Origin: Acidimicrobiia bacterium
Lineage (GTDB): Bacteria; Actinomycetota; Acidimicrobiia; Spongiisociales; UBA5794
NCBI GenBank assembly: GCA_030066875.1
Contig: JASJAS010000002.1
Coordinates: 212-64,211 of the forward strand
Length of the DNA stretch: 64,000 nucleotides
Direction of reading: 5' to 3'
The position numbers were made by a program, and so were the translations under genes. Under the pieces are notes generated by a model. The model had not been told where the DNA came from, did no database searches, and saw only the letters and a list, made by a program, of their open reading frames with translations. Shown here one piece after another: positions 17,689-43,433 of this stretch. How positions within the stretch are numbered: position 1 is the stretch's first letter; every line of letters starts with the position of its first letter.

Positions 17689-17777
17689 GTTTTCACCTCC
17701 AACCGATAGAACGACGCCGCGCCCCCGAATACTACGGAGGCGCGGCGTGCGATTCTCAAACTACGACGGTTCTCGAC

Positions 17778-18899: not shown

Positions 18900-19072
18900 T
18901 TTGTTTTCCTCCTCCTAAGGGGTGTCCCAAATTGGGACCCGTGTACCCTAGCTACCTTCTCCACAATTGGTCGGGGCCGAGGCTCATTGGGTGAGCCGAC
19001 CCCGGACCGCTCCCCGGTTCCTCATGGGTGGACCGCGGATTAGCGCACAGCATACGCCCAATATGTTCGATT

Positions 19073-19097
19073 GTGCAACAAAAGCTTTGGGTTGCAC
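19073..19097. promoter_or_regulatory. Candidate operator palindrome in the divergent transporter/ROK intergenic region.
   Basis: GTGCAAC-N11-GTTGCAC has 7-bp perfect arms and an internal AAAGCTTT palindrome. It lies between the SBP gene and the ROK regulator gene. Confidence 0.35.
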
Positions 19098-19182
19098 GGA
19101 AAGCTAGCGTAGGATCTCCACCTGCAGGCTTGGGCACGGCTGTGGGGATATAGTGGGGTTTCCAACAAATCAAGGAGACAGG

Positions 19183-28254: not shown

Positions 28255-29040
28255 TCAGGAGGCGAGATCGCGCCGGCGCAGGATCGATGCCATCAGCGCG
28301 GAGCAAACCACCATCAACACCATGGCCTTCGCCACAGCGCCACCAGCACCCGGGTCTATGGCGCCCAGTCCGAATTCGTTGCCGACGAGTTCTTGAAAGT
28401 CGCGCGGGGCAAGGGCGGCTATTGCACTTGCGCCGATCCGCCATGGCGAGAGGCTGGATAGCGCCGGCACCGCGGCAGCGATTCCGTTCTCCCACACGAG
28501 CACGTAGGTCAAGCCGATGAGGGTTGCCCGTTTCAGCAGATAGCCCAAAGGAACGAACAACGCGGCATAAGCCGCCGTCGCAACCGCGGTTCCGACCAAC
28601 AGCGGCACGAAGTACGAGAACGTTTCCGTCTTGATCGCAACGAGAATCCCGAAGGCCGCGGCGCCGATGCCGTTGATGATCAGTGCTTCGATGAATGCGG
28701 CGACGACCTTCGCCCCCGCGATTACTACCCGTCTGATTGGGCGGAGCACGAGGAAGGACATGGTGTTGTCGCGTCGCTCGTCGCCCATCACGGAGGTGGC
28801 GATTATCAGCGTTACCACGGGAACCACGATGTTCATGAACACCCCGATGGTCATCCCGATAGAGACCTCAATACCTTCTTCGATCTGGGCCGCCGCCGAG
28901 TTCGTGCTGTTGCGGGTCGCGACCATGAATAGCAAGTACATGGCCGCTGCCGAGCCGGAGAGCAACAGCAGCCCTAGTGCGCGGCGCAGGCGCAGCGTCT
29001 GTCGAACGGTCACCGTGATGATCGCGACGAATGCGCTCAT
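28255..29040 (-). CDS. ABC-2-type transporter permease.
   Basis: 261 aa and about 6 TM segments. ATGA coupling to the upstream ATPase gene. Confidence 0.7.
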   Translation of the reverse strand: MSAFVAIITVTVRQTLRLRRALGLLLLSGSAAAMYLLFMVATRNSTNSAAAQIEEGIEVSIGMTIGVFMNIVVPVVTLIIATSVMGDERRDNTMSFLVLRPIRRVVIAGAKVVAAFIEALIINGIGAAAFGILVAIKTETFSYFVPLLVGTAVATAAYAALFVPLGYLLKRATLIGLTYVLVWENGIAAAVPALSSLSPWRIGASAIAALAPRDFQELVGNEFGLGAIDPGAGGAVAKAMVLMVVCSALMASILRRRDLAS

Positions 29041-29978
29041 CGTCCCCCCACCAGGTAGCGGAACACGCTCTCGAGTGACTCGTCCTCGGGGGCGAACCGG
29101 GAGATGCGAACGTTCAGGTCCCGGGCTTGCTTAGAGATGGTGGTACCGAGCGCGATGAGATCAGTTGTTTCGAGATGAATGCGAGAGTCGTCGATGCTGA
29201 CACTCGAAACGGCCTCGTTGTCGAGGAGCGCAGCCGCAAAGTCGCGCGTCCTATCGCATTCGACGAGCACGCGGTATGGGATGTGAGACATCGCCCGCCG
29301 AATTGCGCTGATGTCGCCTGCGGCCGCAAGCTTCCCATCGACGATCGCAATTACACGGTCGGTCATCCTTTCGACCTCTTGCAGGACATGTGACGAGACG
29401 ACGAGGGTTCGCCCCTCGCCGGCCAGTTTGCCGAGGAGCCTGATTAGATGGGCTCTCTGCACCGGGTCCGTGCCGTTCAACGGCTCATCGAGGACGAGCA
29501 TCTCCGGGTCATGCACCAGCGCCGCGGCCACCTTCGTACGCTGCCGCATGCCCTTGGAAAAACCGCCGATGGCGCGACCGGCATCCTCTGTGAGTTCAAC
29601 CAGCTCGAGGGCGCGATCCGCCGCCGGCTCCGGATTGCCCATACCGCTCAAGGTGGCCGCATACGCCACGTACTGACGAGCCGTGAGGGTGTTGTACAGA
29701 GCACTCTCCTCGGGTACGAATCCAAGCTCGCGGTAGCGGTCGACGCTGGCTCTGGGGAGGGCCCCCTTAACCAGAACCTCGCCCTGCGAAGGCAGGGTGA
29801 GCCCCGTGAGCATCCGCAGCAGAGTTGTCTTCCCTGCACCGTTTGGCCCGAGCAAGCCGGTGAGACCGGGACCGAAGGAACAAGTCACGTCGGAGACCGC
29901 AACCTTCTGCCCGAACCACTTGGAAACCCCGGTCACCTCGATTGTGGGGTTGGAGACGAGTGCAGGGTTGTCGCTCAT
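29037..29978 (-). CDS. ABC transporter ATP-binding protein.
   Basis: Walker A 'GPNGAGKTT', signature 'FSKGMRQR' and Walker B 'MLVLDEPLNG'. Confidence 0.9.
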   Translation of the reverse strand: MSDNPALVSNPTIEVTGVSKWFGQKVAVSDVTCSFGPGLTGLLGPNGAGKTTLLRMLTGLTLPSQGEVLVKGALPRASVDRYRELGFVPEESALYNTLTARQYVAYAATLSGMGNPEPAADRALELVELTEDAGRAIGGFSKGMRQRTKVAAALVHDPEMLVLDEPLNGTDPVQRAHLIRLLGKLAGEGRTLVVSSHVLQEVERMTDRVIAIVDGKLAAAGDISAIRRAMSHIPYRVLVECDRTRDFAAALLDNEAVSSVSIDDSRIHLETTDLIALGTTISKQARDLNVRISRFAPEDESLESVFRYLVGGR

Positions 29979-30865
29979 AGTTCCAGCCTGTATCTACGTG
30001 CCATCAGATACATCGTTCCGGCGCCAACCAAGGCGATGAATAGGATCGAGACCCACGGCTCGAATCCGACCGCCGACATCGGAACGCTGCCCTGTGACTC
30101 ATCGAACACCCAATTGCGGATCACCTCAGGGTGTTGCAGCACCGCGATCAACGTCCCGAAGCGCGAGCCTGGGAAGTCCAACGTCCGGAACATCTCGGCG
30201 AAACCGGGGGAGATGAAAACAACCGCGAGGTAGATGCCTGCCGCCGGTCCCACCCGCTTGGCATACGTCGAGATGAGCAATGCCGGGGCGCCGTACCCAA
30301 TCACATAGGCAACCATGGTCCCGAGAACCTTGAGAAGGTCGTCGAGGTTGTCGATGAGCGCCGCAGCGAGCCCCGCCTCGTCGAGCGCTGCGAAACCGAC
30401 ATACATCAGGAGATTGGGCAAGAGGAAGAAGGCTGAGGCGACTAGCGCGAGGGCGCCAACCCGTCCCCATATGTAATCCCAAGCAGTCATCGGGCGCGAG
30501 CTGTAGACCGACAGCACACCCTCTTCGCGGTCCGGGATGAGGAGGTTAGGAGCGGCCGATGCGACGAACAGGATGATGACCGTTCCCACGAGGCTGATGT
30601 ACTGGGCGTGTCCACCGAAAGGGCTTTCCGCATCAGGCGCGAAAGAGCTGAGGGCAAAGGCGAGTCCAACAAAGACTATGGCAGGAAGGAATGCAAGGAC
30701 AACGAGTCCCCACGGATAGATCTTGCGGCGCGCTTTGCGGCGGATCCCGAACGTCCGGCGCAGCCCGTCCTTCAGCATGGCCTTGATGGCGCCGGATCGA
30801 CCCAGCCGCTGTCCCTCGTAGGGCTTGTACCCGAGGTCGTAGACGACGCCTGCCTTATCGACCAT
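29975..30865 (-). CDS. ABC-2-type transporter permease.
   Basis: Start at ATG 30865 ('MVDKAGVVYDLGYKPYEG'), overlapping the upstream ATPase stop by 11 nt. Multiple TM segments. Confidence 0.7.
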   Translation of the reverse strand: MVDKAGVVYDLGYKPYEGQRLGRSGAIKAMLKDGLRRTFGIRRKARRKIYPWGLVVLAFLPAIVFVGLAFALSSFAPDAESPFGGHAQYISLVGTVIILFVASAAPNLLIPDREEGVLSVYSSRPMTAWDYIWGRVGALALVASAFFLLPNLLMYVGFAALDEAGLAAALIDNLDDLLKVLGTMVAYVIGYGAPALLISTYAKRVGPAAGIYLAVVFISPGFAEMFRTLDFPGSRFGTLIAVLQHPEVIRNWVFDESQGSVPMSAVGFEPWVSILFIALVGAGTMYLMARRYRLEL

Positions 30866-31769
30866 CGCTTGGCGCCTCCCCGAGGAAGATGTCCTCCAGT
30901 GTTGTCGACCGGGCACCCAACTTGCGCAAGGCGGTTCCCGTAGCAGCCAGCGCGTCTCGTGCGGCGAGGAATGGGTCATCCGGACTGGAGGTGATGGTCA
31001 GCGTCTGGCCCGCCTCGTCGACCTCTGCCCCCATTCGGCGCAACTCTGCGGCGACCAGCTCGGCTCCGTCGACAACCTCGAGTTCGACAACTCCTGTCTC
31101 GGTCAGCCCGGACAACGGTCCGTTCCGGAGCACTTGACCCCCATCAAGCATCACGACCCAGTCGCACGTCTGCTCGATATCGGGAAGGACGTGTGATGAG
31201 ACGAGCACGTTGATCCCGAAACCACCGAGACGGCCGATGAGATCGAGCATCTCTTCGCGTCCGCTCGGATCAAGGCCGGCCGTCGGCTCGTCGAGGAAGA
31301 CCATCTCGGGGTCGTGGACGATGGCTTGGGCGAGCATTGCCCGCTGCTTCATGCCCGTCGAGAAATCCCCCAGGTACCGGAACCGTTCTTCGTGGAGACC
31401 CACCATCGTGAGAATGTCCGAGGCTCGCTGTCTCGACTCGTTCGGTGGAACGCCGGCAAGTTCGGCGGCATAGGCGACGAAGTCCGCCGCAGTTTGGTCC
31501 TTAGGGAGGCATTCTCCTTCCGGCATGTAGCCGATGCGGGACCTGACGGTGATGAGGTCGTCGGCCGGATCGGTGCCGAGGACATTGACGGCACCGACGG
31601 TTGGCTCGAGGATGCCGAGCAGTATCTTTATGAGGGTGGTCTTGCCGGCTCCGTTGGCGCCGACCAATCCAATGCGTCCGGGTGGCACTTCGAGGTCGAG
31701 GTGGTGGAGAGCAATCACATCACCATACGCATGTCCGAGGTTGTTGGCAGAGATGGCGGCTGCGGACAT
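30855..31769 (-). CDS. ABC transporter ATP-binding protein.
   Basis: Walker A 'GANGAGKTT', signature 'FSTGMKQR' and Walker B 'MVFLDEPTAG'. Confidence 0.9.
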   Translation of the reverse strand: MSAAAISANNLGHAYGDVIALHHLDLEVPPGRIGLVGANGAGKTTLIKILLGILEPTVGAVNVLGTDPADDLITVRSRIGYMPEGECLPKDQTAADFVAYAAELAGVPPNESRQRASDILTMVGLHEERFRYLGDFSTGMKQRAMLAQAIVHDPEMVFLDEPTAGLDPSGREEMLDLIGRLGGFGINVLVSSHVLPDIEQTCDWVVMLDGGQVLRNGPLSGLTETGVVELEVVDGAELVAAELRRMGAEVDEAGQTLTITSSPDDPFLAARDALAATGTALRKLGARSTTLEDIFLGEAPSDGR

Positions 31770-31812
31770 AGGCCGAGGCTAATACCGGGCACCCCCGACC
31801 GGGAATCGGGAT

Positions 31813-32523
31813 TTACCCTGAAGCGCGTTCACGGCCGGTTCGTGCTCTGACCCGTCGAACCAGGTAGTGCCAGACCTTTTCGGGTGGGGGACCGTCCGGG
31901 GTGGCGGCAACTGCATGCTCCTGAGGTTCTTCGGCAGAGGCTGCGGCTTGCTCGGGTGGCGCCGGCCGGGTTCCGGTCTCAAGGCGTATCTCAGCGAGCC
32001 TTTCCCGCAGGAAGCGGGCTTCCGTCTCGGCCTTGGCTGCTCGCTCCCGTGCCGCCGCGAGCTGTTGGCCCGCCTCGTGGAGATTGCCGAGCTGATTCAG
32101 CATCTTGTTCCAGGCATCGATCGGAACGATCATTGTCCCTGGGGGTGCGGCGTCCGACGTTGTCCCGTCGGATTTCGGTGTCGGGGGAGTCTCGCCCTCG
32201 TACGCCTCCGCTGCGGGTCCCACTGTTCTTCCCAGTTCGGCGGCTCGTTCCTCGACACCGTCCAAGTCGACCAGCCGGATGTTGGTCCCCATCTGCGTCG
32301 GCTCCAGGTATGTCGGGATTGTGGAGCGACGGGCCCATTTGCGTAGGGTCTCCACCGGGATCCCTGTGGCTCTGCTCGCTTCACGCAACGTCACCCAGCG
32401 ACCCGGAGAACTGCTCGACTCGACGTTGTCTACCTCGGCCTCGGCCACTCGCTGCGGTGAGCCGCGCAGGGCTGCGGTCTCCCAAAGGAACGCAGGGTCA
32501 CTATCAGTCATGCGGGTCATCAT
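31813..32523 (-). CDS. Helix-turn-helix (MerR/excisionase-like) protein with a coiled-coil C-terminus.
   Basis: 'WVTLREASRATGIPVETLRKWARRSTIP' is HTH-like. The C-terminal 'QLAAARERAAKAETEARFLRERLAE' is coiled-coil-like. It heads the ABC-2 operon and is divergent from the BMC operon. Confidence 0.5.
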   Translation of the reverse strand: MMTRMTDSDPAFLWETAALRGSPQRVAEAEVDNVESSSSPGRWVTLREASRATGIPVETLRKWARRSTIPTYLEPTQMGTNIRLVDLDGVEERAAELGRTVGPAAEAYEGETPPTPKSDGTTSDAAPPGTMIVPIDAWNKMLNQLGNLHEAGQQLAAARERAAKAETEARFLRERLAEIRLETGTRPAPPEQAAASAEEPQEHAVAATPDGPPPEKVWHYLVRRVRARTGRERASG

Positions 32524-32619
32524 ACGACGCTAATCACGCGGGCTGCCTGCCTGGTTGGTGGGAACTGCGTGCGCGCGGTCTCGCCCACCTAGGATGGCAA
32601 CCGCCCGTAGGAAGCCGCC

Positions 32620-33225
32620 ATGCCGCCACCATCCGAAAGTCGAATCCCCGGCCGTCCCAGTTCCGACGATGTACGGGAGATGGTGTCCCGAATCGTCGAC
32701 GGCGTTCTCGAAGATCCGCAAGAGGCACCCGCAGAGCAAGCCAGTCCTCCGCCGGCCGCCCGTGCTCAGACCGACGGCATCGCCATCGGGGCCGATCACG
32801 GAGGCTATCCGCTGAAAGAACGTCTGGTGTTCCGGCTTCGTGAGCAAGGTCAGAGCATCCTCGACTGCGGAACGGATTCGCCTGACGCAGTCGATTATCC
32901 GGACTACGCCCACGCGGTCGCCAGCGCAGTCGCCACGGGAAAGGCCAGATGGGGCATCATCGTTGACGGTGCGGGAATCGGGTCTTCAATGGTCGCCAAC
33001 AAGGTCCCCGGAGTACGGGCCGCACTTTGCTATGACCTGTCGAGCGCCCGCAACAGCAGAGAACACAACCACGCCAACGTATTGACACTGGGAGCCGGCC
33101 TGATCGGCGAGAATCTGGCATGGCAGATCGTCCAAGAGTGGCTCGCCACCGATTGGGGCGGGGACCGCCATGCACGTCGTGTGGGCAAGATCACCGAGAT
33201 CGAGCGGCGCTACTCGACAATGTAG
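32620..33225 (+). CDS. RpiB/LacAB-family sugar-phosphate isomerase with a 53-aa N-terminal encapsulation-peptide-like extension (BMC cargo).
   Basis: The core '[16 protein letters not shown]...[17 protein letters not shown]...REHNHANVL' aligns to RpiB. The extension '[17 protein letters not shown]' plus a Pro/Ala linker is absent from the housekeeping RpiB at 41658..42110. Confidence 0.85.
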
Positions 33226-33232
33226 GAGAGAA

Positions 33233-34066
33233 ATGGATCGGGACAAGTTAATCGAGGCGGTAACCCAGGAAGTGCTCACCGCGCTCACTATGCGTTACGA
33301 CGTGTGTGAGTCACCCGAGGCGGTGCGCAACGTCGTCGCCAACGGAGCCGATCGAGTCAGCTTTCACGGTGATGCGGCTGATGTGCCGATGGATCTGGCC
33401 CGCTATATCGATCACACCCTGCTCAAGCCTGAGGCGTCCGCCGAAGACATCGACGAGCTTTGTGCAGAAGCACGCGAGTACGAGTTTGCATCGGTGTGTA
33501 TCAACCCCACCTGGGTGAGGCGGGCCGCCACCAACCTGCGCGGATCGAACGTGGTCACCTGCACGGTGATCGGATTCCCGCTGGGGGCCAACACAACGGC
33601 CATCAAAGCGATGGAGGCACGCCGGGCGCTACGCGAGGGCGCACGCGAAATCGATATGGTTCTCAACGTGGGTGCACTCAAGTCGGGTGAGTATGAGCAG
33701 GTACGGGAGGACATCGCCCAGGTTTCCGAAGCTGCACACGAGGTGGGCGGACTGTGCAAGGTCATTCTCGAGACGGCCTTGCTGACCGACGAGGAAAAGG
33801 TCATCGCCTCTTCCCTCGCAAAGGAGGCAAAGGCCGACTTCGTCAAGACGTCGACGGGTTTCGGTTCCGGTGGAGCGACGGTGTACGACGTAGCGCTGAT
33901 GCGGGAGACGGTGGGGCCCGACATGGGCGTCAAGGCGTCGGGCGGAGTACGCACCCTGGAAGATGTGGAGGACATGATCGCCGCGGGAGCAAGTCGCATC
34001 GGGGCTTCGGCGGGTGTGCAGATCGTGAGCGGAGACCAAGGAGAGGCAAATGGCGACCGGTATTGA
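33233..34066 (+). CDS. deoC: Deoxyribose-phosphate aldolase with an N-terminal encapsulation-peptide-like helix (BMC cargo).
   Basis: ATG 33233 follows an AGGAGAG RBS. '[12 protein letters not shown]', Schiff-base Lys motif 'DFVKTSTGF' and 'VKASGGVRT'. N-terminal amphipathic '[15 protein letters not shown]'. Confidence 0.9.
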
Positions 34067-34685
34067 GCTGAGGTCATACACATTCCTCGACAGTCTCCAG
34101 CCCCAGTACGCCGCGTTCCTGGGCACGGTCGCCAAGGGGTTCTTGCCGCTCGCATACGACGCCTCGCTGTGGGTCGAAGTCGCTCCCGGTATCGAGATCA
34201 ATCGGCTGACGGACGTCGCCCTCAAAGCGACCAAGGTGTGGCCGGGAATGCAAATCATCGAGCGGTACTACGGAGTGCTCGAAGTGCATTCACCCGACCA
34301 AGCCGAGACGCGGGCCGCCGGGCAGGCAATCCTCGACGCCATCGGCTTGACCGAAGAAGACCGTCTCAAGCCGCGACTGCTCTCCAGCCAGATCATCCGC
34401 CGGATCGACGACCATCATGCCCAGTTGGTGAACCGCGATCGGCACGGTCACATGATCATCCCGGGACAAACACTCTATGTTCTCGAATGCGAACCGGCCG
34501 TGTACTCGGCGCTGGCAGCCAACGAGGCGGAAAAAGCCGCGGAGATCAGCATTCTGGAGGTACGGTCATTTGGCTCGATGGGTCGCATGTACCTTGCCGG
34601 GGAAGAGAGGGATATCGATGTCGGCTGGCGGGCAGCTGTAGCCGCGCTCGAGGGTGTGAGCGGGCGCGAGCCGACGAAGAAGTGA
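34050..34685 (+). CDS. Tandem BMC-domain shell protein (BMC-T, divergent).
   Basis: It has two ~95-aa halves, each with the BMC beta-alpha-beta pattern: '[24 protein letters not shown]...GVLEVH' and '[30 protein letters not shown]...[14 protein letters not shown]'. An AAGGAGAGG RBS precedes it, and it lies inside the shell operon. Confidence 0.7.
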
Positions 34686-34712
34686 GTTTGGCAATGAAAG
34701 GAGGAGCTTCTC

Positions 34713-35015
34713 ATGGCTGAAGCTCTTGGAATGATCGAAGCTCGGGGTTTTGCGGCAATGGTCGAGGCCTCGGATGCGATGGTCAAGGCAGCCAAGGTCG
34801 AATTGGTGAGCTACGAGAAGACCGGAGGCGGCTACGTGACGGCCATCGTCCGTGGTGATGTCGCCGCGGTGAAGGCCGCAGTTGATGCCGGCGTCCGCGG
34901 CGCAGAGAAGGTCGGCGAGGTCATCGCTACCCACGTCATCGCCCGTCCCCATCTCAACATCGATCTGGTGTTGCCGCTGGGTCGCAGCGAAGAGGCCGAG
35001 CGCGAACTCGGCTAG
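34713..35015 (+). CDS. BMC-H hexameric shell protein (PduA/EutM-like, Pfam00936).
   Basis: '[57 protein letters not shown]' is a canonical BMC-H sequence. Confidence 0.95.
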
Positions 35016-35059
35016 CCACCTGTACCCGCCGCGGCGGGACCAGATTAAGGAGGCAATCC

Positions 35060-35347
35060 ATGCATCTGGGAAGGGTGGTCGGGACCCTCGTTGCGAGCCG
35101 CAAGGAGGAACTGCTCGAGGGCATGAAGTTCCTCGTCATTCGCCAACTCGGCGTCGACAACGACGAGACCGGTGGCTATGTGGTTGCGGTTGACGCAGTG
35201 GGTGCTGGGGTCGATGAGGTGGTCATGTACGCCCAAGGCAGCTCGGCGCGCCAGACCGTGCTCACGAGAGACAAGCCTTGTGACGCGGTGATCATGGCGA
35301 TCGTCGATACGTGGGAAGTAGACGGCGACGTGAAGTACCGGAAGTGA
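35060..35347 (+). CDS. BMC-P pentameric vertex protein (EutN/CcmL family).
   Basis: '[30 protein letters not shown]...[13 protein letters not shown]'. An AAGGAGG RBS precedes it. Confidence 0.9.
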
Positions 35348-35362
35348 GGCTCGGGACCGGCG

Positions 35363-36820
35363 ATGCTTAGCGAGCAGGATGTCAGGACGATCATCGAGAG
35401 GGTGAAAGGCCGCGTCGCCGCGGTCGAATCGTCCGGTCGCCCCGGTCCTGCGCTGGCAGCGAGTGACGACCTTGCGGCGTACGAGGCCCAGCTGGGAGAG
35501 GGCATCTATCCAACGATCGATAAGGCTGTAGCCGCGGCGCGCCGGGCGTTTGTTGAGTTCCGCGACATGGGTCTCGACGGGCGTCGCACCATTGTCGATG
35601 CGATGCGGGAGTCGATGCTCCGCGAAGGTGAGCGGCTTGCCTACATGGCCCGGGAGGAAACCGGCTTGGGTCGGGCCGACGACAAAACCATCAAGAACCG
35701 CATCGTGACGTTGGGCACACCCGGACCCGAGGACCTCGATCCCCATGCCGTCACCGGCGATGACGGGATGATGGTGACCGAGTGGGCTCCTTATGGCGTC
35801 ATCGGTTCGATCTCGCCCACCACCAACCCGACTTCCACCATCATCAACAACGCGATAGCCATGATTTCGGCCGGCAACGCAGTCGTCTTCAACGTGCACC
35901 CCAGCGCCAAGGCGGTCTCGGTCGAGAACATAAAGCTACTCAACCGCGCCATAGTGTCGGCGGGCGGTCCCACCGACCTCATTACTGCGATCCCGAACCC
36001 GACGCTGGAGAGTGCGCGCGAGGTCATGTACCACCCCGACGTCCGGGTCCTGCTGGTGACGGGCGGGCCCGGGGTGGTCAAGGAAGCGCTGAAGACCCAG
36101 AAGAAGTCAATCACCGCCGGTCCGGGCAACCCGCCCGCGGTCGTGGATCAGACGGCTGATGTGAGCAAGGCAGGCCGAGACATCGTCAACGGCGCCTCGT
36201 TCGACAACAACATCATCTGTGTAGACGAGAAGACAACCATCGTCGTCGACACGGTGGCCGACCGTCTCATCCAAGCCATGACGGCCGCGGGTGCGTACCG
36301 GCTCAAGGAACACGAGCTGAAACGACTGGAGCGGGTGATTTTCAAGGAACTCGGTCAGCCTGCGAAACCTGGTCTGATCAATCCGGAATGGATCGGCAAG
36401 GATGCATCAGCGATCTTGGGGGCGATCGGGGTCATGGTGGATCCGAGCATCAGGTTGCTGATTGCCGAGGTTCCGAGGGAGCACTCGCTTGTCTGGACCG
36501 AACAGATGATGCCGGTAATGCCGGTTGTCAGGGTCAAGGATGTCGATGTTGCCATCGATCTGGCCGTTCGCTCCGAGCACAAGTTCCGGCACACTGCGTC
36601 GATCCATTCCACGAACGTGGCTTCAATCACCAAGATGGCACGGGCCATGAACTGCAGCATCTTCGTGGCCAACGGTCCCAACTACGCCGGCCTCGGTGAG
36701 GGTGGAGAAGGCTTTACCTCGTTCTCGATTGCGTCTCCTACTGGAGAAGGGCTCACCCGGCCGCGCACCTTCTCCAGGGTGCGGCGGGTCACAGTTGTCG
36801 GAGCGCTGCGCTATGTCTGA
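35363..36820 (+). CDS. CoA-acylating aldehyde dehydrogenase (PduP/EutE-like) with an N-terminal encapsulation peptide.
   Basis: The catalytic region 'FDNNIICVDEK' matches the PduP/EutE 'FDNNxxCxxEK' motif. The N-terminus 'EQDVRTIIERVKGRV' is followed by the linker 'ESSGRPGPALAAS'. Confidence 0.9.
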   Translation: MLSEQDVRTIIERVKGRVAAVESSGRPGPALAASDDLAAYEAQLGEGIYPTIDKAVAAARRAFVEFRDMGLDGRRTIVDAMRESMLREGERLAYMAREETGLGRADDKTIKNRIVTLGTPGPEDLDPHAVTGDDGMMVTEWAPYGVIGSISPTTNPTSTIINNAIAMISAGNAVVFNVHPSAKAVSVENIKLLNRAIVSAGGPTDLITAIPNPTLESAREVMYHPDVRVLLVTGGPGVVKEALKTQKKSITAGPGNPPAVVDQTADVSKAGRDIVNGASFDNNIICVDEKTTIVVDTVADRLIQAMTAAGAYRLKEHELKRLERVIFKELGQPAKPGLINPEWIGKDASAILGAIGVMVDPSIRLLIAEVPREHSLVWTEQMMPVMPVVRVKDVDVAIDLAVRSEHKFRHTASIHSTNVASITKMARAMNCSIFVANGPNYAGLGEGGEGFTSFSIASPTGEGLTRPRTFSRVRRVTVVGALRYV

Positions 36821-37457
36821 CGAAGTGCTCACGAACGAAGTGCCCGGGGTGGATCCGGCGATAGCCATGATCGAGTTCTCTTCAATCGCGGTCGGGATCG
36901 TCGCCGGGGATGCCATGATCAAGGCGTCTCCGCTCGGATCGATCTACGCGGGCACGGTTCACCCCGGCAAGTATCTGGTTCTGGTCAGTGGGGACACCGC
37001 CAGCGTCGACGAGGCGTTCGACGTTGGCCTCTCCGTCGGGCGCGGAATGGTTCTCGACTCCGTCTTCCTTCCCGACATCCATCCCGCGGTGACGGGGGCA
37101 ATTGCGTCCGATGAGGAGGCCGCCTGGATCAGCGGGGACGCTCTCGGCATGGTCGAGACCGAGCACGTGGCAACCGTGATTCAGGCCGCCGACGCGGGGG
37201 TCAAGGCCGCCTTCGTCGAAGTCAGCGCGGTCCGTATGGCCGACGGTCTGGGTGGCAAGGGCTACGTGTTGTTCTCCGGAGAGGTTGCCGAAGTGGAGGC
37301 AGCCGTCGACGCTGCCGAGCAGTGGAGCGCGGAATCCGGCTTCGTACTGCAGGCCCACGTCATCGCCCAATTGCACGACGAGATGGCGTTCAATCTGCGT
37401 TCCGACCTGCGCTTCCGCAGCCGGCTGGCGTTGCGGCCCTTAGAGCGGGACGGTTGA
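36813..37457 (+). CDS. Tandem BMC-domain shell protein (BMC-T).
   Basis: ATG 36813 overlaps the AldDH stop (ATGTCTGA). It has two BMC domains: 'AIAMIEFSSIAVGIVAGDAMIKASP...KYLVLVSGDTASVDEA' and 'ALGMVETEHVATVIQAADAGVKAAFVEV...GYVLFSGEVAEVEAAVDAA'. Confidence 0.85.
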   Translation: MSDEVLTNEVPGVDPAIAMIEFSSIAVGIVAGDAMIKASPLGSIYAGTVHPGKYLVLVSGDTASVDEAFDVGLSVGRGMVLDSVFLPDIHPAVTGAIASDEEAAWISGDALGMVETEHVATVIQAADAGVKAAFVEVSAVRMADGLGGKGYVLFSGEVAEVEAAVDAAEQWSAESGFVLQAHVIAQLHDEMAFNLRSDLRFRSRLALRPLERDG

Positions 37458-37458
37458 C

Positions 37459-37731
37459 GTGCAGCTCGGGCGAGTCCGCGGAACGGTCGTAGCAACCATC
37501 AAGTCTGGAGGTCTCGAAGGAGTGCGCTTTCTGATTGTGCAGCCGCTCGACAAGCACCAGGAGCCGGTAGGCGATCCGCTGGTAGCGGCAGATGCCGTCC
37601 ACATGGCTGCGCCGGGAGAACTGGTGTACGTAGTCGGCTCGCGTGAGGCGGCGGAAGCGATGCCCGAGAGGTTCGTCCCGGTCGACCACGCAATCGTGGG
37701 AATCGTCGATCAGGTGGCGTTGTCACCATGA
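37459..37731 (+). CDS. BMC-P pentameric vertex protein (EutN/CcmL family), paralog 2.
   Basis: GTG start. 'MQLGRVRGTVVATIKSGGLEGVRFLIVQPLD...AADAVHMAAPGELV'. Confidence 0.85.
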   Translation: MQLGRVRGTVVATIKSGGLEGVRFLIVQPLDKHQEPVGDPLVAADAVHMAAPGELVYVVGSREAAEAMPERFVPVDHAIVGIVDQVALSP

Positions 37732-37997
37732 AGGTGGCCAGGGTTGCCGGGACGGTGGTTTCGACGATCAGCTTCCCATTCTTCGACGAGAAGCGGTTGC
37801 TGCTGTGTGATGTGCTCGACGCAAAGGGCGAGGTGCAGGGCTACACCATCGCCGTTGATGTCGTCGACGCCGGTGTTGGAGAAACCGTTCTGGTGTTGGA
37901 CGAGGGCAACTCATCGCGCCAGATATTCGGGCTGGAGACAGGTCCGATCAGGGCAACCGTCGTCGGAATCGTCGACGAGGTCGAGTTCGGAACCTAA
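37728..37997 (+). CDS. BMC-P pentameric vertex protein (EutN/CcmL family), paralog 3.
   Basis: ATGA coupling to the upstream gene. 'MKVARVAGTVVSTISFPFFDEKRLLLCDVLD...AVDVVDAGVGETVLV'. Confidence 0.85.
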   Translation: MKVARVAGTVVSTISFPFFDEKRLLLCDVLDAKGEVQGYTIAVDVVDAGVGETVLVLDEGNSSRQIFGLETGPIRATVVGIVDEVEFGT

Positions 37998-38006
37998 GGC
38001 CGACCG

Positions 38007-38052
38007 TTCTTGCGGACATAGCTTCGCTATTCCGGCGGCATGTCCGCAAGAA
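38007..38052 (+). terminator. Long hairpin immediately after the BMC operon; possible terminator or RNA-stability element.
   Basis: TTCTTGCGGACAT (38007..38019) pairs perfectly with ATGTCCGCAAGAA (38040..38052), with a 20-nt loop. There is no U-tract. Confidence 0.45.
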
Positions 38053-38166
38053 GCGTGGGGCGTCTCAAGATGCCGAGGGATATCGCCGATAGTCGGTAGG
38101 GTTCCGGCAACCGCGTGTGTGCGTGCGGTCGGTTCATCCGAAGCTACAGAGGGGAAGACACCCAGT

Positions 38167-38523
38167 ATGCGCAAGTTGTTCATTCTTCTGGCCGCGCTCG
38201 GCCTGGTCGCCGCAGCGTGCGGTGGCGACTCCGCCGGCTCATGTGAGAGCGTCGCCGACGATGCCATCCAGGTCATTCAAGAAGTAATCGACGAGCTGGA
38301 CTCGCTGACACTCGAGGAACTCGGCAACCTGGACGAGGAGCCCGAGGTGATCCAGAACATGGAGAAGCGAGCCGACGAATTGCAGGCGCAAGCCAACGAG
38401 CTGGGCTGCAGCGACTCTGAGATGGAGGAGCTGTTGAACGCTCGGGTCGGCAACCTCGAAGCCGACGGTATGTTCGGCGGGCTTCTCGTCGAGGAACTCG
38501 AGAGCGGAGGCTTCTTCGAGTAA
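38167..38523 (+). CDS. Small acidic lipoprotein, hypothetical.
   Basis: ATG 38167. Lipobox 'LGLVAAAC|GGD'. The Glu/Asp-rich helical region contains two Cys. Confidence 0.6.
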   Translation: MRKLFILLAALGLVAAACGGDSAGSCESVADDAIQVIQEVIDELDSLTLEELGNLDEEPEVIQNMEKRADELQAQANELGCSDSEMEELLNARVGNLEADGMFGGLLVEELESGGFFE

Positions 38524-38549
38524 AGCACCACCGATCTACAGTTCCCCAG

Positions 38550-39299
38550 ATGAACGGCAGCGGCAGGAAGACCACCCTTTGGCTCCTGCCGCTGCTTCTG
38601 TTTGTGACCAGCTGCGATGATCCGGTCACGGTGGTGGTGGAAGCTGAACCGGAGGAGGTCGAGACCTGCGAGTGGCTGATCCCGATAGGCATCGAACTGG
38701 TCAACGACTACTTCTACACCATCGAGGAATCCGACGTGGCCGCGTCGCTCGGAGATCCAGCGCAGCTGCCCACCTCGATTATTGCTCTCAACGCGCGGGG
38801 AGCCGATCTAGACCGTCGGGCCGACGAGCTGGAATGCAACCTCGCTGAGTTGAACACAGCCATCGTGGCAGCCACCGAGGGCTTGGAGCCGTCCGATCCC
38901 ATCACCAGCGTGTTCCTCGATACCGTGCGGGGCGGGGTTCTAGCACCGGAGGTGCCTGCGGGAGAGTGGGTCTTTGTCGAGGGAATGGTATTGGGCGAAC
39001 CGATCGTCCCTGCCCCCGGCCAGAGGATTACGCTCGTTGTGAACGACGATGGAACAGCATCGGGCAGTGCCGGCTGCAATCAGTATTCCTTGTTCGGATC
39101 AGTGGCCGACGGGGAGTGGCAGATCGAGAGGTTGGAGACATCGCAATCGCTGTGTCCGTCCGATGTTCATGCCACCGCGGAGGACCGCTACTTCACCGGT
39201 TTGATGTATGCGTGGGAGTACACGGTCAGCGCGAACTCGCTGCTGCTTGGGAATGCCGACACGGAGTTCAGATTCGAGAAAACGGTCGCCGAGGACTAG
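38550..39299 (+). CDS. Lipoprotein with a C-terminal META (HslJ-like) domain.
   Basis: Lipobox 'LLLFVTSC|DD'. 'ASGSAGCNQYSLFGSV...ETSQSLCP...AEDRYFTGL' is the META signature. Confidence 0.7.
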   Translation: MNGSGRKTTLWLLPLLLFVTSCDDPVTVVVEAEPEEVETCEWLIPIGIELVNDYFYTIEESDVAASLGDPAQLPTSIIALNARGADLDRRADELECNLAELNTAIVAATEGLEPSDPITSVFLDTVRGGVLAPEVPAGEWVFVEGMVLGEPIVPAPGQRITLVVNDDGTASGSAGCNQYSLFGSVADGEWQIERLETSQSLCPSDVHATAEDRYFTGLMYAWEYTVSANSLLLGNADTEFRFEKTVAED

Positions 39300-39988
39300 C
39301 GCGGCACGGAGCGAAGCTTCGAAGCCGCTGCCTCGTCCACCATCCACCGCGCCGCATCAGCTCCTGCTGCAACCCGCTGTGCCGGGAACGGCAGTCCATC
39401 GTCGATGATCTGCGAAAGAACCTCTGCTTTGTCCGCGCCTTGAACCAGGAAAACCAACTCGCGAGCGCTCCACAACAGCGCCATCGACGCAGTCAATCGC
39501 CAGGTTTCCTTTTGTTCGACCCAGCTGGCCAAATAGATGCCGGAGTCGTCTGTGAGGGCATCAGAGCCGGGAAACAGAGAGGCGGTGTGGCCATCATTAC
39601 CGATGCCGAGCAGCACAAGATCGGGTCGATCCTCGTAGAAGATCTCACAGAGTGTCGCGCCGTAGGAGGCCGCAGCTGCAGCCGGTTCGCCGAATGCGGT
39701 GTCGGGCGCAACCAAGCGGGCCAGAACCATGTCGACCAGCGTCTCGTGGACCATGCGGGTGTTCGAATCCGGGTGATCATGCGAAACCCAGCGCTCATCA
39801 CCGAGCCACATCGTCACCCTATTCCAGTCGACATTTCTCGTCGCGAGCTCTCGATAAGTGGCCGCAGGAGTATTTCCTCCGGCGAGTCCGAGTGTGGTCG
39901 GTCGATCTGAAGCATCGATACAAGCCGCGATGTGATCAGCAGCAGCCCGCGCCAGGGATGCTGCGTCGGCGTAGATGTGGACGCTCAT
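39296..39988 (-). CDS. pgl: 6-phosphogluconolactonase.
   Basis: Start at ATG 39988 ('MSVHIYADAASLARAAADHI'). 'LGLAGGNTP' and 'LLGIGNDGHTASLFPG' motifs. Confidence 0.85.
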   Translation of the reverse strand: MSVHIYADAASLARAAADHIAACIDASDRPTTLGLAGGNTPAATYRELATRNVDWNRVTMWLGDERWVSHDHPDSNTRMVHETLVDMVLARLVAPDTAFGEPAAAAASYGATLCEIFYEDRPDLVLLGIGNDGHTASLFPGSDALTDDSGIYLASWVEQKETWRLTASMALLWSARELVFLVQGADKAEVLSQIIDDGLPFPAQRVAAGADAARWMVDEAAASKLRSVPR

Positions 39989-40018
39989 ACGTCCAAAACT
40001 AGTGGCTACGCTCGGCAC

Positions 40019-40669
40019 ATGACTAGGAGACTGAGACTCGCATGGGGTGCCGGGGAGAAGGTGACCGCCCGCCTTGCCGTACCCCGGTCTGAAAGCGCGG
40101 CGGGAATCGTCCTCGCCCATGGCGCCGGAGCGGGACAGGACCACGACTTCATGGTGACCCTGCGCAGTGCTTTGGTCGGTGAAGGACTCACCGTATTGAC
40201 CTTCAATTACGCCTATACCGAGGCGGAGCGGAAGGCTCCCGACCGACTACCGAAGCTACTCGAGGTACATCGGGCGGCGGCTGATCGGCTGGCAACGTAC
40301 TGTGACCGGGTCGTGCTCGCAGGAAAGTCGATGGGTGGCCGGGTGGCGTCTCACCTCGCGGGTGACGAAGGCTGGCCGGCAGCCGCCATGGTCTATTACG
40401 GGTATCCGCTGGTGCCGCTCGGCAGGGGTGAGCCCCGGGAAACCACCCACCTGAGCCGGATCGGGGTTCCGCAGCTGTTCTTCTCGGGATCGAGGGATCG
40501 GCTCGGGCCGCCCGAGTTGATCACGGACCTTGCCAATCGGCTCCCCTCCGCCGAGGTCGAAGTGATTCAGGGCGGCGATCATTCCTTCAAGGTGCCAAAG
40601 GCAGCGGGTCTGACCCACGCCGAGGTGATCGGGCGCATGGCGGCGACTACAGCTCGGTGGATGGGATAA
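40019..40669 (+). CDS. Alpha/beta hydrolase (dienelactone-hydrolase/KANL3-like).
   Basis: ATG 40019. Nucleophile elbow 'LAGKSMGGRV'. 'SGSRDRLG' and 'GGDHSF' give the Asp/His triad context. Confidence 0.7.
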   Translation: MTRRLRLAWGAGEKVTARLAVPRSESAAGIVLAHGAGAGQDHDFMVTLRSALVGEGLTVLTFNYAYTEAERKAPDRLPKLLEVHRAAADRLATYCDRVVLAGKSMGGRVASHLAGDEGWPAAAMVYYGYPLVPLGRGEPRETTHLSRIGVPQLFFSGSRDRLGPPELITDLANRLPSAEVEVIQGGDHSFKVPKAAGLTHAEVIGRMAATTARWMG

Positions 40670-41546
40670 CACCCTTGCCGGCGTAATACCCGGCTCGAGC
40701 CTTGCCATCGAAGAGGTCGAGTACCCAGATACTTGCTCTTGGCCACTTCCGGGAGCCCCGCAGCGGCACCTTCCTGCTGTCGAGATCCCTTATCAGGGAG
40801 CGGACCCAGTTCTCGTGGGTGGCCAGAACCACCGCACCCGACCCAATCGACTTCAGGTACTTGCGGATGTCGTCAGCGGTCATGTTCTCTTTGAGCTTCT
40901 TGGACGTTTCGACGTCGATGCCGAGCTGGGCTGCAAGCGGCTCCACCGTCTGCACACAACGCAAGGCCGGGCTGGAGACGATCTTGGAAACTGGGTGGCG
41001 AGCCATGAACTCGGCAAGCTGGTTTGCCTGTTCCCGTCCCTTGCCGGTCAGCGGGCGCTTCTTGTCTGGGCCCTTCGCCTTGGAGCGAACTCCGGCGTTG
41101 CCATTACGCACAACGTAGAGGCGTGCCGACGAGGGGTTCTCTAGAAGCCCCTGCGCCCTTTCAATGAGGCGGGCGTCGCGGTTGTAGGTGAGGAGAGCCT
41201 TGGCCCCGTTGATACCCACCCACTCCGCATTGTCCACTTCCAGGTTCGGAACGAAAGAGCCTTTCACCGCCTCCAGCATCCAGTATTTCACGAGCTTGGG
41301 TCGGCCTCGCTGCGTCGGGTAGGTGACACCGCCGAGGAAAGGGCCGACATTGCACTTGATCCCGGTTTCTTCCCGTACCTCTCGGGCTGCGGCTTCTTCG
41401 AAAGACTCGCCTCGATCCAGCTTTCCCTTTGGCAGGGACCAATCGTGATAGCGGTTGCGGTGCACCAGTAGGAACTGCGGTCCGGTGTTACCGAATCCTT
41501 CTCTGTAGACGACACCGCCCGCGGCGAGAACTCGTGGCGTCGCCAT
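40647..41546 (-). CDS. Bifunctional-type Nudix hydrolase / histidine-phosphatase (SixA-like) fusion (MutT1-like architecture).
   Basis: Nudix box 'GKLDRGESFEEAAAREVREETGI'. The C-terminal His-phosphatase fold is 'LYVVRNGNAG...RPLTGKGREQA...LATHENW'. Confidence 0.75.
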   Translation of the reverse strand: MATPRVLAAGGVVYREGFGNTGPQFLLVHRNRYHDWSLPKGKLDRGESFEEAAAREVREETGIKCNVGPFLGGVTYPTQRGRPKLVKYWMLEAVKGSFVPNLEVDNAEWVGINGAKALLTYNRDARLIERAQGLLENPSSARLYVVRNGNAGVRSKAKGPDKKRPLTGKGREQANQLAEFMARHPVSKIVSSPALRCVQTVEPLAAQLGIDVETSKKLKENMTADDIRKYLKSIGSGAVVLATHENWVRSLIRDLDSRKVPLRGSRKWPRASIWVLDLFDGKARAGYYAGKGVIPSTEL

Positions 41547-41657
41547 CAGTGGACTCCTCCCGGCGGCGCTATTGCGCGGATTCCCGACACGCTACGGCTC
41601 CTCCGGGCCTGGTCAAGCGATGGTTGGCATGATCTATGTCGCATCCGGCAAGGAAGG

Positions 41658-42110
41658 TTAGGAGCGGTTACGTTCCAACTCCAGCACCTTGTTGAGACGG
41701 CGTACGTATCGTTCCTTCGGAACGAATTGGGCGCCCAGGTAGGCCTGCACGATCTCCTCAGCTACGGCGGCGCCGGTTACACGTGCGGCCAGGGCCAGCA
41801 CGTTGACATCGTCGTGCTCCACCGCCTGATGGGCCGTATACGTGTCGCCGGCTTGAGCGCACCTGATGCCGTCGAGTTTGTTGGCCGCGATGGCGGCACC
41901 AGCCCCGGAACCGCACACGACGATCCCGCGGTCGGCGCGCCCCTGTATGACCGCGCGACCCACAGCCGCGGCGAAGTCCGGGTAGTCCACCCTTTCTGCG
42001 TCTGAGTCGGTTCCCAGGTCGAGGACCGAGTGGCCGGAGCCTGCTATCAGCTGCTTCAGCTCCTCTTTGAGCTCGTATCCGGCGTGGTCGGCACCGATGG
42101 CTATTCGCAT
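41658..42110 (-). CDS. rpiB: Ribose-5-phosphate isomerase B (housekeeping copy).
   Basis: 'MRIAIGADHAGYELK', catalytic-Cys segment 'GIVVCGSGAGAAIAANK' and 'VEHDDVNVL'. 150 aa with no extension. Confidence 0.9.
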   Translation of the reverse strand: MRIAIGADHAGYELKEELKQLIAGSGHSVLDLGTDSDAERVDYPDFAAAVGRAVIQGRADRGIVVCGSGAGAAIAANKLDGIRCAQAGDTYTAHQAVEHDDVNVLALAARVTGAAVAEEIVQAYLGAQFVPKERYVRRLNKVLELERNRS

Positions 42111-42185
42111 GCGGGTTCATCCCCTGATGGCGTTCTCGAGCACATTATTGCTCGCGAAAAACCATGCAGCCTCTACCATCGCGGC

Positions 42186-43433
42186 ATGGATTCGATCAGG
42201 GTCATCGGCGGGAGACCGCTGTCCGGGGAAGTCGCGGTGCATGGGGCAAAGAACGCGGTGCTCAAACACATGGTGGCGATGCTGCTCGCTCCTGGTCGTT
42301 ACCGGCTCGAGAATGTGCCGGGGATTCTCGACGTCGACATCATGGGCGAGGTCCTCGACCACGTCGGGGCAACATGCACCCGCCGCGAGTCGGTCGTCGA
42401 GGTCGATGTGCCTGAATCGCTCAATCCCGAGGCGCCTCTCGAACTCGTCCGCAAGATGCGGGCCTCGATACTGATCCTCGGGGCTCTGCTGGCTCGAGTC
42501 GGCTCGGCCCGAGTCGCTCTCCCCGGGGGTGACGACTTCGGATCTCGTCCGATAGGCATGCACCTCGATGGTCTCGAGCAAATGGGAGCCGTATTCGAGC
42601 TGCGCCATGGTGTGCTCGAGGCATCGGCTCCCAACGGGTTGGCCGGTACCGACATCTTTCTCGAGTTCCCCAGTGTGGGAGCTACAGAGAACCTCCTCCT
42701 CGCCGCGGTGCTGGCCACAGGAAAGACGACCATCGGAAATGCGGCGCGCGAACCCGAATTGGCCGATTTGGCTTCGCTTCTCAACCAGATGGGAGCCAAG
42801 GTCGACGGAGCCGGGACATCCACAATCGAAGTCATGGGCGTGCCCTCACTCAGTCCAGCCGACCACAAGGTCGTCGCCGACCGTCTCGTCGCTGGGACCT
42901 ACGCGCTCGCTGCCGCGGCGAGCGGCGGTGAAATCACGGTCCTGGGCTGTGACCCCGGCTTCCTTCGCATGGAGCTGCGCAAGATGCAAGCAGCGGGGTG
43001 TGACGTCGAGCGTGGCGACGATTGGTTCTCCGTCACGGGCCCGGAAAGGCCCGAACCGCAGGACATCGCGACGTTGCCGTACCCCGGGTTTCATACCGAC
43101 ATGCATCCGCAGATGGTCGCGTTTCTGGCGCGGGCGACCGGGACCTCTCTCGTCACCGAAAACGTATACGCAGCGCGATTCCGCTATATCGGCGAACTCA
43201 ACAGGATGGGCGCCGACATTCAGACCGACGGCCAGCATGTTGTCGTCCGCGGGGTGGAGGAACTGAGTGGGTGCGAGGTCGACGGATGTGACATCAGGGC
43301 AGCGGCTGCGCTCACGATCGCCGGTCTTGCCGCCGAAGGGGAAACCATCGTCCACGATGCCGAACACATCGACCGGGGATACGACGGCTTTGTGGACACA
43401 TTGCGGAATCTCGGCGCCGACATCGATCGTTAG
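42186..43433 (+). CDS. murA: UDP-N-acetylglucosamine 1-carboxyvinyltransferase.
   Basis: Start at ATG 42186 ('MDSIRVIGGRPLSGEVAVHGAKNAVL'). 415 aa, EPSP-synthase fold. Confidence 0.9.
   Translation: MDSIRVIGGRPLSGEVAVHGAKNAVLKHMVAMLLAPGRYRLENVPGILDVDIMGEVLDHVGATCTRRESVVEVDVPESLNPEAPLELVRKMRASILILGALLARVGSARVALPGGDDFGSRPIGMHLDGLEQMGAVFELRHGVLEASAPNGLAGTDIFLEFPSVGATENLLLAAVLATGKTTIGNAAREPELADLASLLNQMGAKVDGAGTSTIEVMGVPSLSPADHKVVADRLVAGTYALAAAASGGEITVLGCDPGFLRMELRKMQAAGCDVERGDDWFSVTGPERPEPQDIATLPYPGFHTDMHPQMVAFLARATGTSLVTENVYAARFRYIGELNRMGADIQTDGQHVVVRGVEELSGCEVDGCDIRAAAALTIAGLAAEGETIVHDAEHIDRGYDGFVDTLRNLGADIDR

Follow-up and report, generated by a model that had tools for sequence, protein, structure and literature searches.

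Which substrate is metabolized in a bacterial microcompartment (BMC) whose shell and enzyme genes stand in one row in the genome of an uncultured Acidimicrobiia bacterium? The question was raised by a 64,000-nucleotide stretch of DNA (GenBank assembly GCA_030066875.1, contig JASJAS010000002.1, positions 212 to 64,211), called the window here in its whole length, and by an original prediction, drawn from the letters of this stretch, that it contains a complete BMC operon of the sugar-phosphate utilization (SPU) type. Our analysis indicated that the row is very probably one operon encoding an SPU3-type metabolosome that catabolizes 2-deoxyribose 5-phosphate (dR5P).

A conserved nine-gene operon

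The list of open reading frames (ORFs), together with Pfam and NCBIfam scans, revealed nine co-directional, tightly packed and partly overlapping intact ORFs on the forward strand at 32620..37997. Their order is RPI-DERA-T(dp)-H-P-AldDH-T(s)-P-P, in which an RpiB-like protein (RPI), a DERA/DeoC aldolase and a CoA-acylating aldehyde dehydrogenase (AldDH) are combined with clustered PF00936 (BMC-H and BMC-T) and PF03319 (BMC-P) shell proteins, namely one BMC-H, two BMC-T and three BMC-P in 5.4 kb. The successive intergenic distances are +7, -17, +27, +44, +15, -8, +1 and -4 nt, and a purine-rich Shine-Dalgarno-like stretch lies 5' of most of the genes, clearly so for the first five. All nine genes named in the original prediction were present and intact, with strong family matches; the coordinates it had given were exact, the start of DERA being the sole refinement, and its shell inventory of H + 2 T + 3 P was borne out by family and PDB matches. 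Judged from the spacing, a -10-like box upstream and a hairpin downstream (both described below), the nine genes appear to form one transcription unit.

To survey conservation, one genome per GTDB species was searched with the DERA protein, and tblastn searches with all of the window proteins were then performed. The identical nine-gene order was found in ~45 species genomes belonging to Acidimicrobiia, other Actinomycetota and Chloroflexota, in which the identity of DERA ranged from 94% down to 59%. An order shared by so many genomes excludes chance and therefore points to a conserved, selected cassette. In a relative whose DERA is 88% identical, both the operon and its flanks are the same.

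Shell proteins

The BMC-H gene (34713..35015, +; PF00936, 8.2e-29) encodes the predicted hexamer and main facet protein of the shell. Its closest solved structure is the BMC-H of Haliangium ochraceum (5DJB, E 2e-42), and the interface motifs KAAK and ARPH are present. The two longer proteins predicted to be BMC-T both match the BMC fold, each in its own way. The first of them (34050..34685, +) had been described as a divergent BMC-T and indeed scored only 0.0033 on the Pfam BMC model. It matched CcmP of Synechococcus elongatus (PDB 4HT5/5LSR) with an E value of 2.5e-85 and 64.7% identity over 204 residues, and it reached 334.6 bits on the CcmP model NF053796, just under the equivalog cut-off of 340. 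Further PDB matches were T2/T3 of H. ochraceum (5V76/5V74, ~1e-72) and CsoS1D (2.8e-55); CcmP was the best, while CsoS1D and the RMM T(dp) proteins were far weaker. The weak Pfam score, and hence the divergent look, arises because the fold is permuted, whereas PF00936 models the unpermuted domain. Instead of being divergent, this protein is, to judge from these matches, a canonical permuted double-stacking trimer of the CcmP type, BMC-T(dp). In the alignment, the Glu-Arg pair of its IIERYYG stretch stands opposite that of FIERLYG in CcmP; we take this to be the pore-gating pair, and by homology the T(dp) would possess a large gated pore.

The second BMC-T (36813..37457, +) carries two PF00936 domains (2.5e-33) and matches the PduT-type trimers 3PAC, 3NWG and 3N79 at E ~1e-31, which identifies it by homology as a PduT-like BMC-T(s) of standard topology. 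It contains zero Cys residues, and therefore it should be unable to hold the Fe-S cluster of PduT and should have no Fe-S pore. The three genes predicted to be EutN-like all matched PF03319. Paralog 1 (35060..35347, +; 4e-27) does so over the whole length of the profile; paralog 2 (37459..37731, +; 7.3e-25) begins with GTG 1 nt past the stop of T(s); and paralog 3 (37728..37997, +; 4.3e-20) adjoins paralog 2 with a 4-nt overlap. These putative vertex proteins are mutually 34-37% identical, and they appear to be the BMC-P 'triplet' described for SPU loci.

Enzymes and their N-terminal extensions

The DERA protein (33233..34066, +) matched TIGR00126 deoC at 1.3e-85, with 286 bits against a cut-off of 117. 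Its core (residues 53-274) is ~60% identical to solved DERAs, including 5DBU, to which the catalytic (Schiff-base) motifs EIDMV, FVKTSTG and GVKASGG, with the Asp and the two Lys, are identical in the alignment. Residues 1-52 are unmatched in any solved DERA; this N-terminal extension of ~52 residues is kept in relatives and is absent from Clostridium DERAs. In the AlphaFold2 (AF2) model, a helix (3-20), a second helix (28-36) and a strand (41-44) precede the TIM barrel with low to moderate confidence, and the modeled extension would agree roughly with the published description of BMC DERA. The first in-frame ATG, at 33170, would give a protein of 298 aa and a 56-nt overlap with RPI, and the NCBI gene model (P0100) has 225 aa, by which the entire extension is lost. 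Because the homologs are uniformly 277 aa long and begin with MDR(D/E)KLIEAV, the ATG at 33233 (277 aa) is the sole start backed by conservation. Truncated gene models of BMC enzymes have been described as an annotation artifact by Dwyer et al. (PMC11585597).

Within the DERA extension (window 33233-33400), three parts can be told apart, namely the helix, a loop that varies and contains Cys, and the conserved element KVRxVVANGAxRxS. We compared DERA N-termini among related loci (L024-L027, L029-L033, L037, L039 and L042-L046). In many Acidimicrobiia and Chloroflexota relatives the loop bears CxxCxxxC(A)AH(C/S), and in the clade of the window it has a single invariant Cys (RYDVCES). In loci of the Ignavibacteria type, most of them from Melioribacteraceae and with no shell genes detected beside DERA, the loop carries FYCxGGTCxGWERN. 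The Cys-rich form may be a metal or redox site, of which we found no discussion in the SPU literature examined.

The RPI gene (32620..33225, +) matched PF02502 at 1.4e-51, with the domain beginning at residue 54. In alignment with E. coli RpiB (1NN4), IIVDGAGIG stands opposite ILICGTGVG, which places an Asp at the position of the catalytic Cys66. VDGAGIG recurs in the RPI of relatives wherever the printed stretch extends to that position, and the fold, with its conserved His, is intact in every related locus. A second rpiB in the window, at 41658..42110, retains the catalytic Cys. The Cys-to-Asp replacement has been reported for all SPU RPIs (Dwyer et al. 2024, PMC11585597), and the RPI of an SPU6 locus was inactive on ribose 5-phosphate (R5P), with negligible isomerase activity, and was bound to DERA (Dwyer, Sutter and Kerfeld 2024, PMC11585597). 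By analogy with this DERA-RPI complex, the RpiB-like protein of the window is most likely a packaging partner of DERA.

The AldDH (35363..36820, +; PRK15398, 618.9 bits) and 5JFL, the BMC AldDH of R. palustris, align from end to end (E 3.8e-127), and the catalytic Cys286 of the former is conserved (FDNNIICVDEK vs FDNNLPCVAEK of 5JFL). The C terminus of the window protein ends level with that of 5JFL and has no extension, and its N terminus has a conserved helix motif, DVRTIIERVKGRV (xDVRTIIERVKGRV), followed by a variable linker. In this way DERA, RPI and AldDH each carry an N-terminal extension that is absent from non-BMC homologs and consists of a short conserved helix, mostly followed by a poorly conserved linker. 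In RPI, the helix motif resembles an encapsulation peptide (EP) and a variable Pro/Ala linker follows; the hydrophobic moment of this helix is 0.66, a value that 3.6% of shuffles reach. In DERA, the conserved helix motif is followed by a conserved second element. From their position and conservation, the three extensions are presumed to act as EPs.

Assignment to the SPU3 type

The original prediction had taken DeoC, RpiB and AldDH together as the signature of the SPU class, and this inventory was verified by family matches and fits the published SPU definition. Assignment to a type was made by the published written description and not by the HMM classifier of the catalog. In that description (Sutter et al. 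2021, Supplementary Data 2), SPU3 loci have AldDH, pfam01791 and pfam02502 enzymes, with N-terminal EPs on AldDH and DERA; their shell comprises one standard BMC-H, a BMC-P triplet, a T(dp) of the CcmP clade and a T(s) without PduS or a pore cysteine; and their host phyla include Actinobacteria and Chloroflexi. Every item of this description is found in the locus, which supports its assignment as SPU3-type. The string 'Acidimicrobi' was not found in the part of the SPU catalog (Sutter et al. 2021) that was available to us. Among the other types, SPU2 was rejected, as its loci have an additional green-clade BMC-P, usually a pore Cys in the T(s), and hosts in other phyla, and SPU6 was rejected for its C-terminal AldDH EP, its non-CcmP T(dp) and its lack of a T(s). 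SPU1, SPU4 and SPU7, which have a phosphotransacylase (PTAC) and no T(dp), were a poorer fit. According to a published correlation, a T(dp) is typical of loci that lack PTAC, and the locus here is consistent with it.

The SPU class had been said to have no established substrate or physiology. As regards physiology this still stands; as regards substrate it has been overtaken, since cleavage of dR5P was measured in vitro with the SPU6 DERA of Chloroflexi bacterium GWB2_54_36 (PMC11585597), whose proteins are the sole SPU enzymes characterized in vitro. With the activity of this DERA, the inactive RPI and the DERA-RPI complex shown, the class is no longer purely bioinformatic.

A proposed dR5P pathway and its alternatives

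Encapsulation, metabolite routes, cofactor exchange and regulation are what we infer from the genes described above. In the proposed compartment, BMC-H, the PduT-like T(s) and the CcmP-like T(dp) would tile the facets and the three BMC-P would cap the vertices. DERA, AldDH and the RpiB-like protein would be recruited through their N-terminal extensions and the DERA-RPI complex, with the Asp-variant RpiB-like protein serving mainly in packaging with DERA and not as an R5P isomerase. dR5P would enter by the shell pores and be cleaved by DERA to glyceraldehyde 3-phosphate, which would exit to glycolysis, and acetaldehyde, which would be retained by the shell and converted by AldDH, with CoA and NAD+, to acetyl-CoA. 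The surroundings were examined by Pfam and NCBIfam scans of ~60 selected ORFs across the 64-kb window. Among these ORFs there was no match to PTAC/PduL (PF06130), Fe-type alcohol dehydrogenase (ADH), PduS or triosephosphate isomerase, nor to class II aldolase (PF00596) or further shell genes. With no PTAC, ADH or PduS at the locus, internal recycling of CoA and NAD+ would be lacking, and therefore acetyl-CoA/CoA and NADH/NAD+ would have to cross the shell, most plausibly via the large gated pore of T(dp).

Several observations weigh against this scenario. The compartment is predicted here from its genes, and the enzyme whose dR5P activity was measured is of the SPU6 type and comes from a Chloroflexi bacterium; it is neither an SPU3 protein nor that of the window (PMC11585597). 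In a hydrophobic-moment test, admittedly crude, the helices of DERA and AldDH were not above shuffles and only that of RPI was significant; because of this null result, the EP status of the former two rests on conservation pattern and position and not on amphipathicity. In addition, the N-terminal helix of DERA has a pLDDT of 47-64 in the AF2 model. A scan of 31700-39400 for E. coli-type sigma-70 promoters called none, and a scan of the same region for U-tract terminators gave three weak intragenic sites only, fewer than in shuffles. The genes that would supply deoxyribose or nucleosides, deoA/B/D/K, were not found among the ~60 ORFs scanned. Finally, the SPU literature leaves the role of the RPI-like protein unexplained and calls RpiB specificities broad.

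The last two points, together with the retention of the RPI-like gene with intact fold and conserved His in every related locus, and of pgl and the second rpiB beside the module in Acidimicrobiia, favor a different substrate: an Asp-variant RpiB-like isomerase acting on another, perhaps rare, sugar phosphate could feed DERA, or DERA could take another 2-deoxy sugar phosphate, so that dR5P would not be the (only) substrate of an SPU-like compartment. We consider this rather improbable. In the SPU6 RPI, isomerase activity on R5P was negligible, and R5P or ribulose 5-phosphate (Ru5P) has no known enzymatic link to DERA; the DERA core shares ~60% identity and every catalytic motif with bona fide DERAs and scores strongly on the deoC equivalog; and neither pgl nor rpiB was detected adjacent to the Chloroflexota operons. 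A wider proposal, which we regard as doubtful, is that the module exceeds the nine genes, with a so far undescribed MerR-like family, taken up below (a winged helix-turn-helix, wHTH, plus an invariant long helix) as a dedicated sensor-regulator of actinobacterial SPU3 loci, and with the Asp-variant RpiB-like protein and the DERA extension, Cys-rich in relatives, being catalytic or redox/metal-dependent and not mere tags, so that substrate or control would differ from a dR5P-only model.

That the operon is decaying or silent and no longer builds a compartment seems very unlikely to us. The source is a metagenome-assembled genome, and one relative has its last BMC-P fused to a downstream META-domain ORF; however, each of the nine ORFs is intact and has its start codon and Shine-Dalgarno sequence, and order and sequence are kept across ~45 species, down to 59% DERA identity, with the catalytic residues retained. 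It is hardly credible that the locus is carboxysome-related or of the H. ochraceum (HO) type instead of an SPU metabolosome, and this reading is effectively refuted already by the enzyme content. The 64.7% identity of T(dp) to CcmP and the HO shell proteins among the best solved matches of BMC-H and T do point that way, but a CcmP-like T(dp) is expected in SPU2 and SPU3, the CcmP score of 334.6 lies under the cut-off of 340, and no RuBisCO, CcmM/N or carbonic anhydrase was found among the window ORFs scanned. The main HO loci lack DERA and RPI and have a class II aldolase, while here DERA and RPI lead the operon, there is one T(dp) and PF00596 is absent from the scanned ORFs. Thus, an SPU3-type metabolosome acting on dR5P is the explanation that we prefer.

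Operon ends and a candidate regulator

Among 13 aligned relatives, the sole conserved block of the intergenic region upstream of RPI is CCTAGGATG (32588-32596, +), which lies ~25 nt 5' of the RPI start codon and, in the window, stands in a different reading frame from RPI. This conservation footprint is likely to mark a -10 element, TAGGAT, which fits the actinobacterial -10 consensus, TAGRRT/TANNNT. No conserved dyad operator was found upstream of the box; short inverted repeats occur in individual loci and are not conserved. A search of the whole window against Rfam returned no RNA family, and no riboswitch or leader was detected. Directly 3' of the last stop codon, folding revealed a strong RNA hairpin (38007..38052, +; minimum free energy -36.8 kcal/mol, z = -4.5 vs shuffles), which has no U tract and is the probable end of the operon. 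The next gene, encoding a lipoprotein, begins ~170 nt downstream with its own ribosome-binding site. Transcription would accordingly run from a promoter with the TAGGAT box to the hairpin past the last BMC-P.

Behind the hairpin, the window has a small lipoprotein gene (38168-38523) and a META-domain gene (38550-39299). In close relatives a META-domain lipoprotein gene lies directly 3' of the last BMC-P, with a 4-nt overlap in locus L002 (14487-15541), and in L001 (14488-15543) and L013 the last BMC-P and the META domain are called as one fused ORF of 351 aa. We excluded the lipoprotein and META-domain genes from the operon, as they are absent from distant loci and are separated from it in the window by the hairpin and 170 nt.

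On the opposite strand, divergent from RPI, lies a gene for a protein of 232-236 aa with a MerR-like wHTH and a long helix (31813..32511 or ..32523, -), a candidate regulator of the operon. Its Pfam matches are below the gathering thresholds (PF00376, 18.2 bits vs 28.2; PF12728/HTH_17, 17.8 vs 27), and some homologs carry precomputed PF12728 or PF00376 matches. In the AF2 model, residues 39-93 fold confidently as a wHTH and residues 131-181 form a helix 50 residues long. The best matches of this model in a Foldseek search were MerR-type DNA-binding domains (CarH, NmlR and BldC), all of them weak (E >= 0.035; none reached 0.001). A profile search placed the gene next to RPI and divergent from it in 28 of the 48 related BMC loci, and two sampled distant homologs likewise adjoin SPU operons. 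Compared with the window (28255-43433), the MerR-like gene and the nine genes are flipped together in four Acidimicrobiia loci (L034, L035, L038 and L040) with respect to their flanks, the ABC-2 exporter and the block of pgl, abhydrolase, rpiB and murA; this joint inversion indicates that the ten genes move as one module. From this gene linkage we propose that the MerR-like protein regulates the operon. For the SPU6 locus, a GntR-type regulator has been described (PMC11585597), and Dwyer et al. 2024 (PMC11585597) make no mention of a MerR-like regulator.

The MerR-like proteins form a distinct family with >1,300 homologs. They carry an invariant N-terminal DPAFLWETEALR motif, the wHTH, a linker rich in Pro and a helix that hardly varies, DAWNKMLNQLGNLHEAGQQLAEARERAAKAETEA; all cases examined were linked to SPU operons of Actinomycetota.

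Genomic neighborhood

The neighbors of the operon in the window are housekeeping genes, among them murJ, an ABC-2 exporter, murA, ligA, gatCAB and mnmA. The context had been called pentose-phosphate flavored on account of a pgl gene (39296..39988) and a housekeeping rpiB (41658..42110), and both genes are indeed present. The pgl ORF extends over 39296..40144 (TIGR01198, 1.7e-46), and its domain begins at residue 59, which makes a start near 39988 plausible. The two genes adjoin the module in many Acidimicrobiia loci, even in those with an inverted module; L001, L002, L012 and L013 have no pgl, and tblastn with the window proteins detected neither gene in the Chloroflexota loci. The pentose-phosphate neighbors are read as a reflection of lineage synteny and not as a sign of a link in function.

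A few other genes deserve mention. At 15587-20415, a sugar ABC transporter of the xylose type (an XylF-like binding protein with 358.8 bits, just below the cut-off, a permease and an ATPase) lies beside a divergent ROK-family regulator, and in relatives this unit is only ~5-6 kb upstream of the BMC operon. A NUDIX and histidine-phosphatase fusion at 40647-41546 (-) resembles mycobacterial MutT1, an 8-oxo-(d)GTP phosphatase (192 bits, below the cut-off), and is kept near the operon in many Acidimicrobiia loci; the proximity of a nucleotide-sanitizing fusion to a putative deoxyribose-phosphate compartment may be a coincidence. A two-subunit 2-oxoacid:ferredoxin oxidoreductase (POR_N, POR and TPP_enzyme_C) is encoded at 7512-10393 (-).

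Implications

SPU compartments are among the most widespread types of BMC. Since the locus fits the catalogued SPU3 type, it adds little conceptually, and since the class has been catalogued and partly characterized biochemically, a specialist would not be surprised by it. It does represent a minimal SPU3 operon, with nine genes, unfused RPI and DERA and no accessory enzymes. A minimal operon that is conserved across many sediment Acidimicrobiia and Chloroflexota is therefore a clean candidate for heterologous reconstitution, and, lacking PTAC, ADH and PduS, it lends itself to a sharp test of whether CoA/acetyl-CoA and NAD(H) pass through a gated CcmP-like trimer. In addition, a search for the inducing signal could start from the conserved promoter box and from the MerR-like gene that travels with the operon. 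If extracellular DNA is consumed in this way by sediment Acidimicrobiia, the compartment would have a bearing on carbon and phosphorus recycling in coastal sediments.

Comparison with known systems

The locus shares with catalogued SPU3 loci AldDH, DERA and RPI as the only enzymes and the adjacency of two of the three BMC-P genes. RPI and DERA are separate genes here, whereas they are fused in 12-20 catalogued SPU3 loci, and the MerR-like gene, the CCTAGGATG box and a DERA extension that has lost its Cys cluster are features of the window without a description in the SPU3 sources. The SPU6 locus of GWB2_54_36 has the same set of RPI, DERA and AldDH, including an RPI with the Cys-to-Asp change and an N-terminal EP and a DERA in which, as here, the catalytic residues are conserved behind an N-terminal extension, of ~70 residues in that case. 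It differs in the C-terminal EP on an AldDH of another clade, in a T(dp) of the 'blue' clade, in having no T(s) and in its GntR/UTRA regulator.

The set of shell parts is similar to that of H. ochraceum: both have three BMC-P, the single BMC-H matches its HO counterpart at E 2e-42, and the T(s) and the T(dp) resemble HO-T1 (5DIH, E 5e-19) and HO-T2/T3 (~1e-72), respectively. The HO shell components reportedly self-assemble into closed icosahedral shells. In contrast to the locus here, HO has two T(dp) paralogs, and its main locus has a class II aldolase and lacks DERA and RPI. With beta-carboxysomal CcmP (4HT5), the T(dp) has the permuted tandem-BMC architecture in common, although the context here is catabolic and not CO2-fixing. 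SPU-type BMCs have also been described in Hodarchaeales (bioRxiv 10.1101/2025.11.08.687404). Those loci add a PTAC, a PduS-like MNdh paired with T(s), a second BMC-H and, on one BMC-P, a DNA-binding tail. The operon of the window has none of these additions, but the core of DERA and AldDH and the proposed substrate, dR5P derived from DNA, are common to both.

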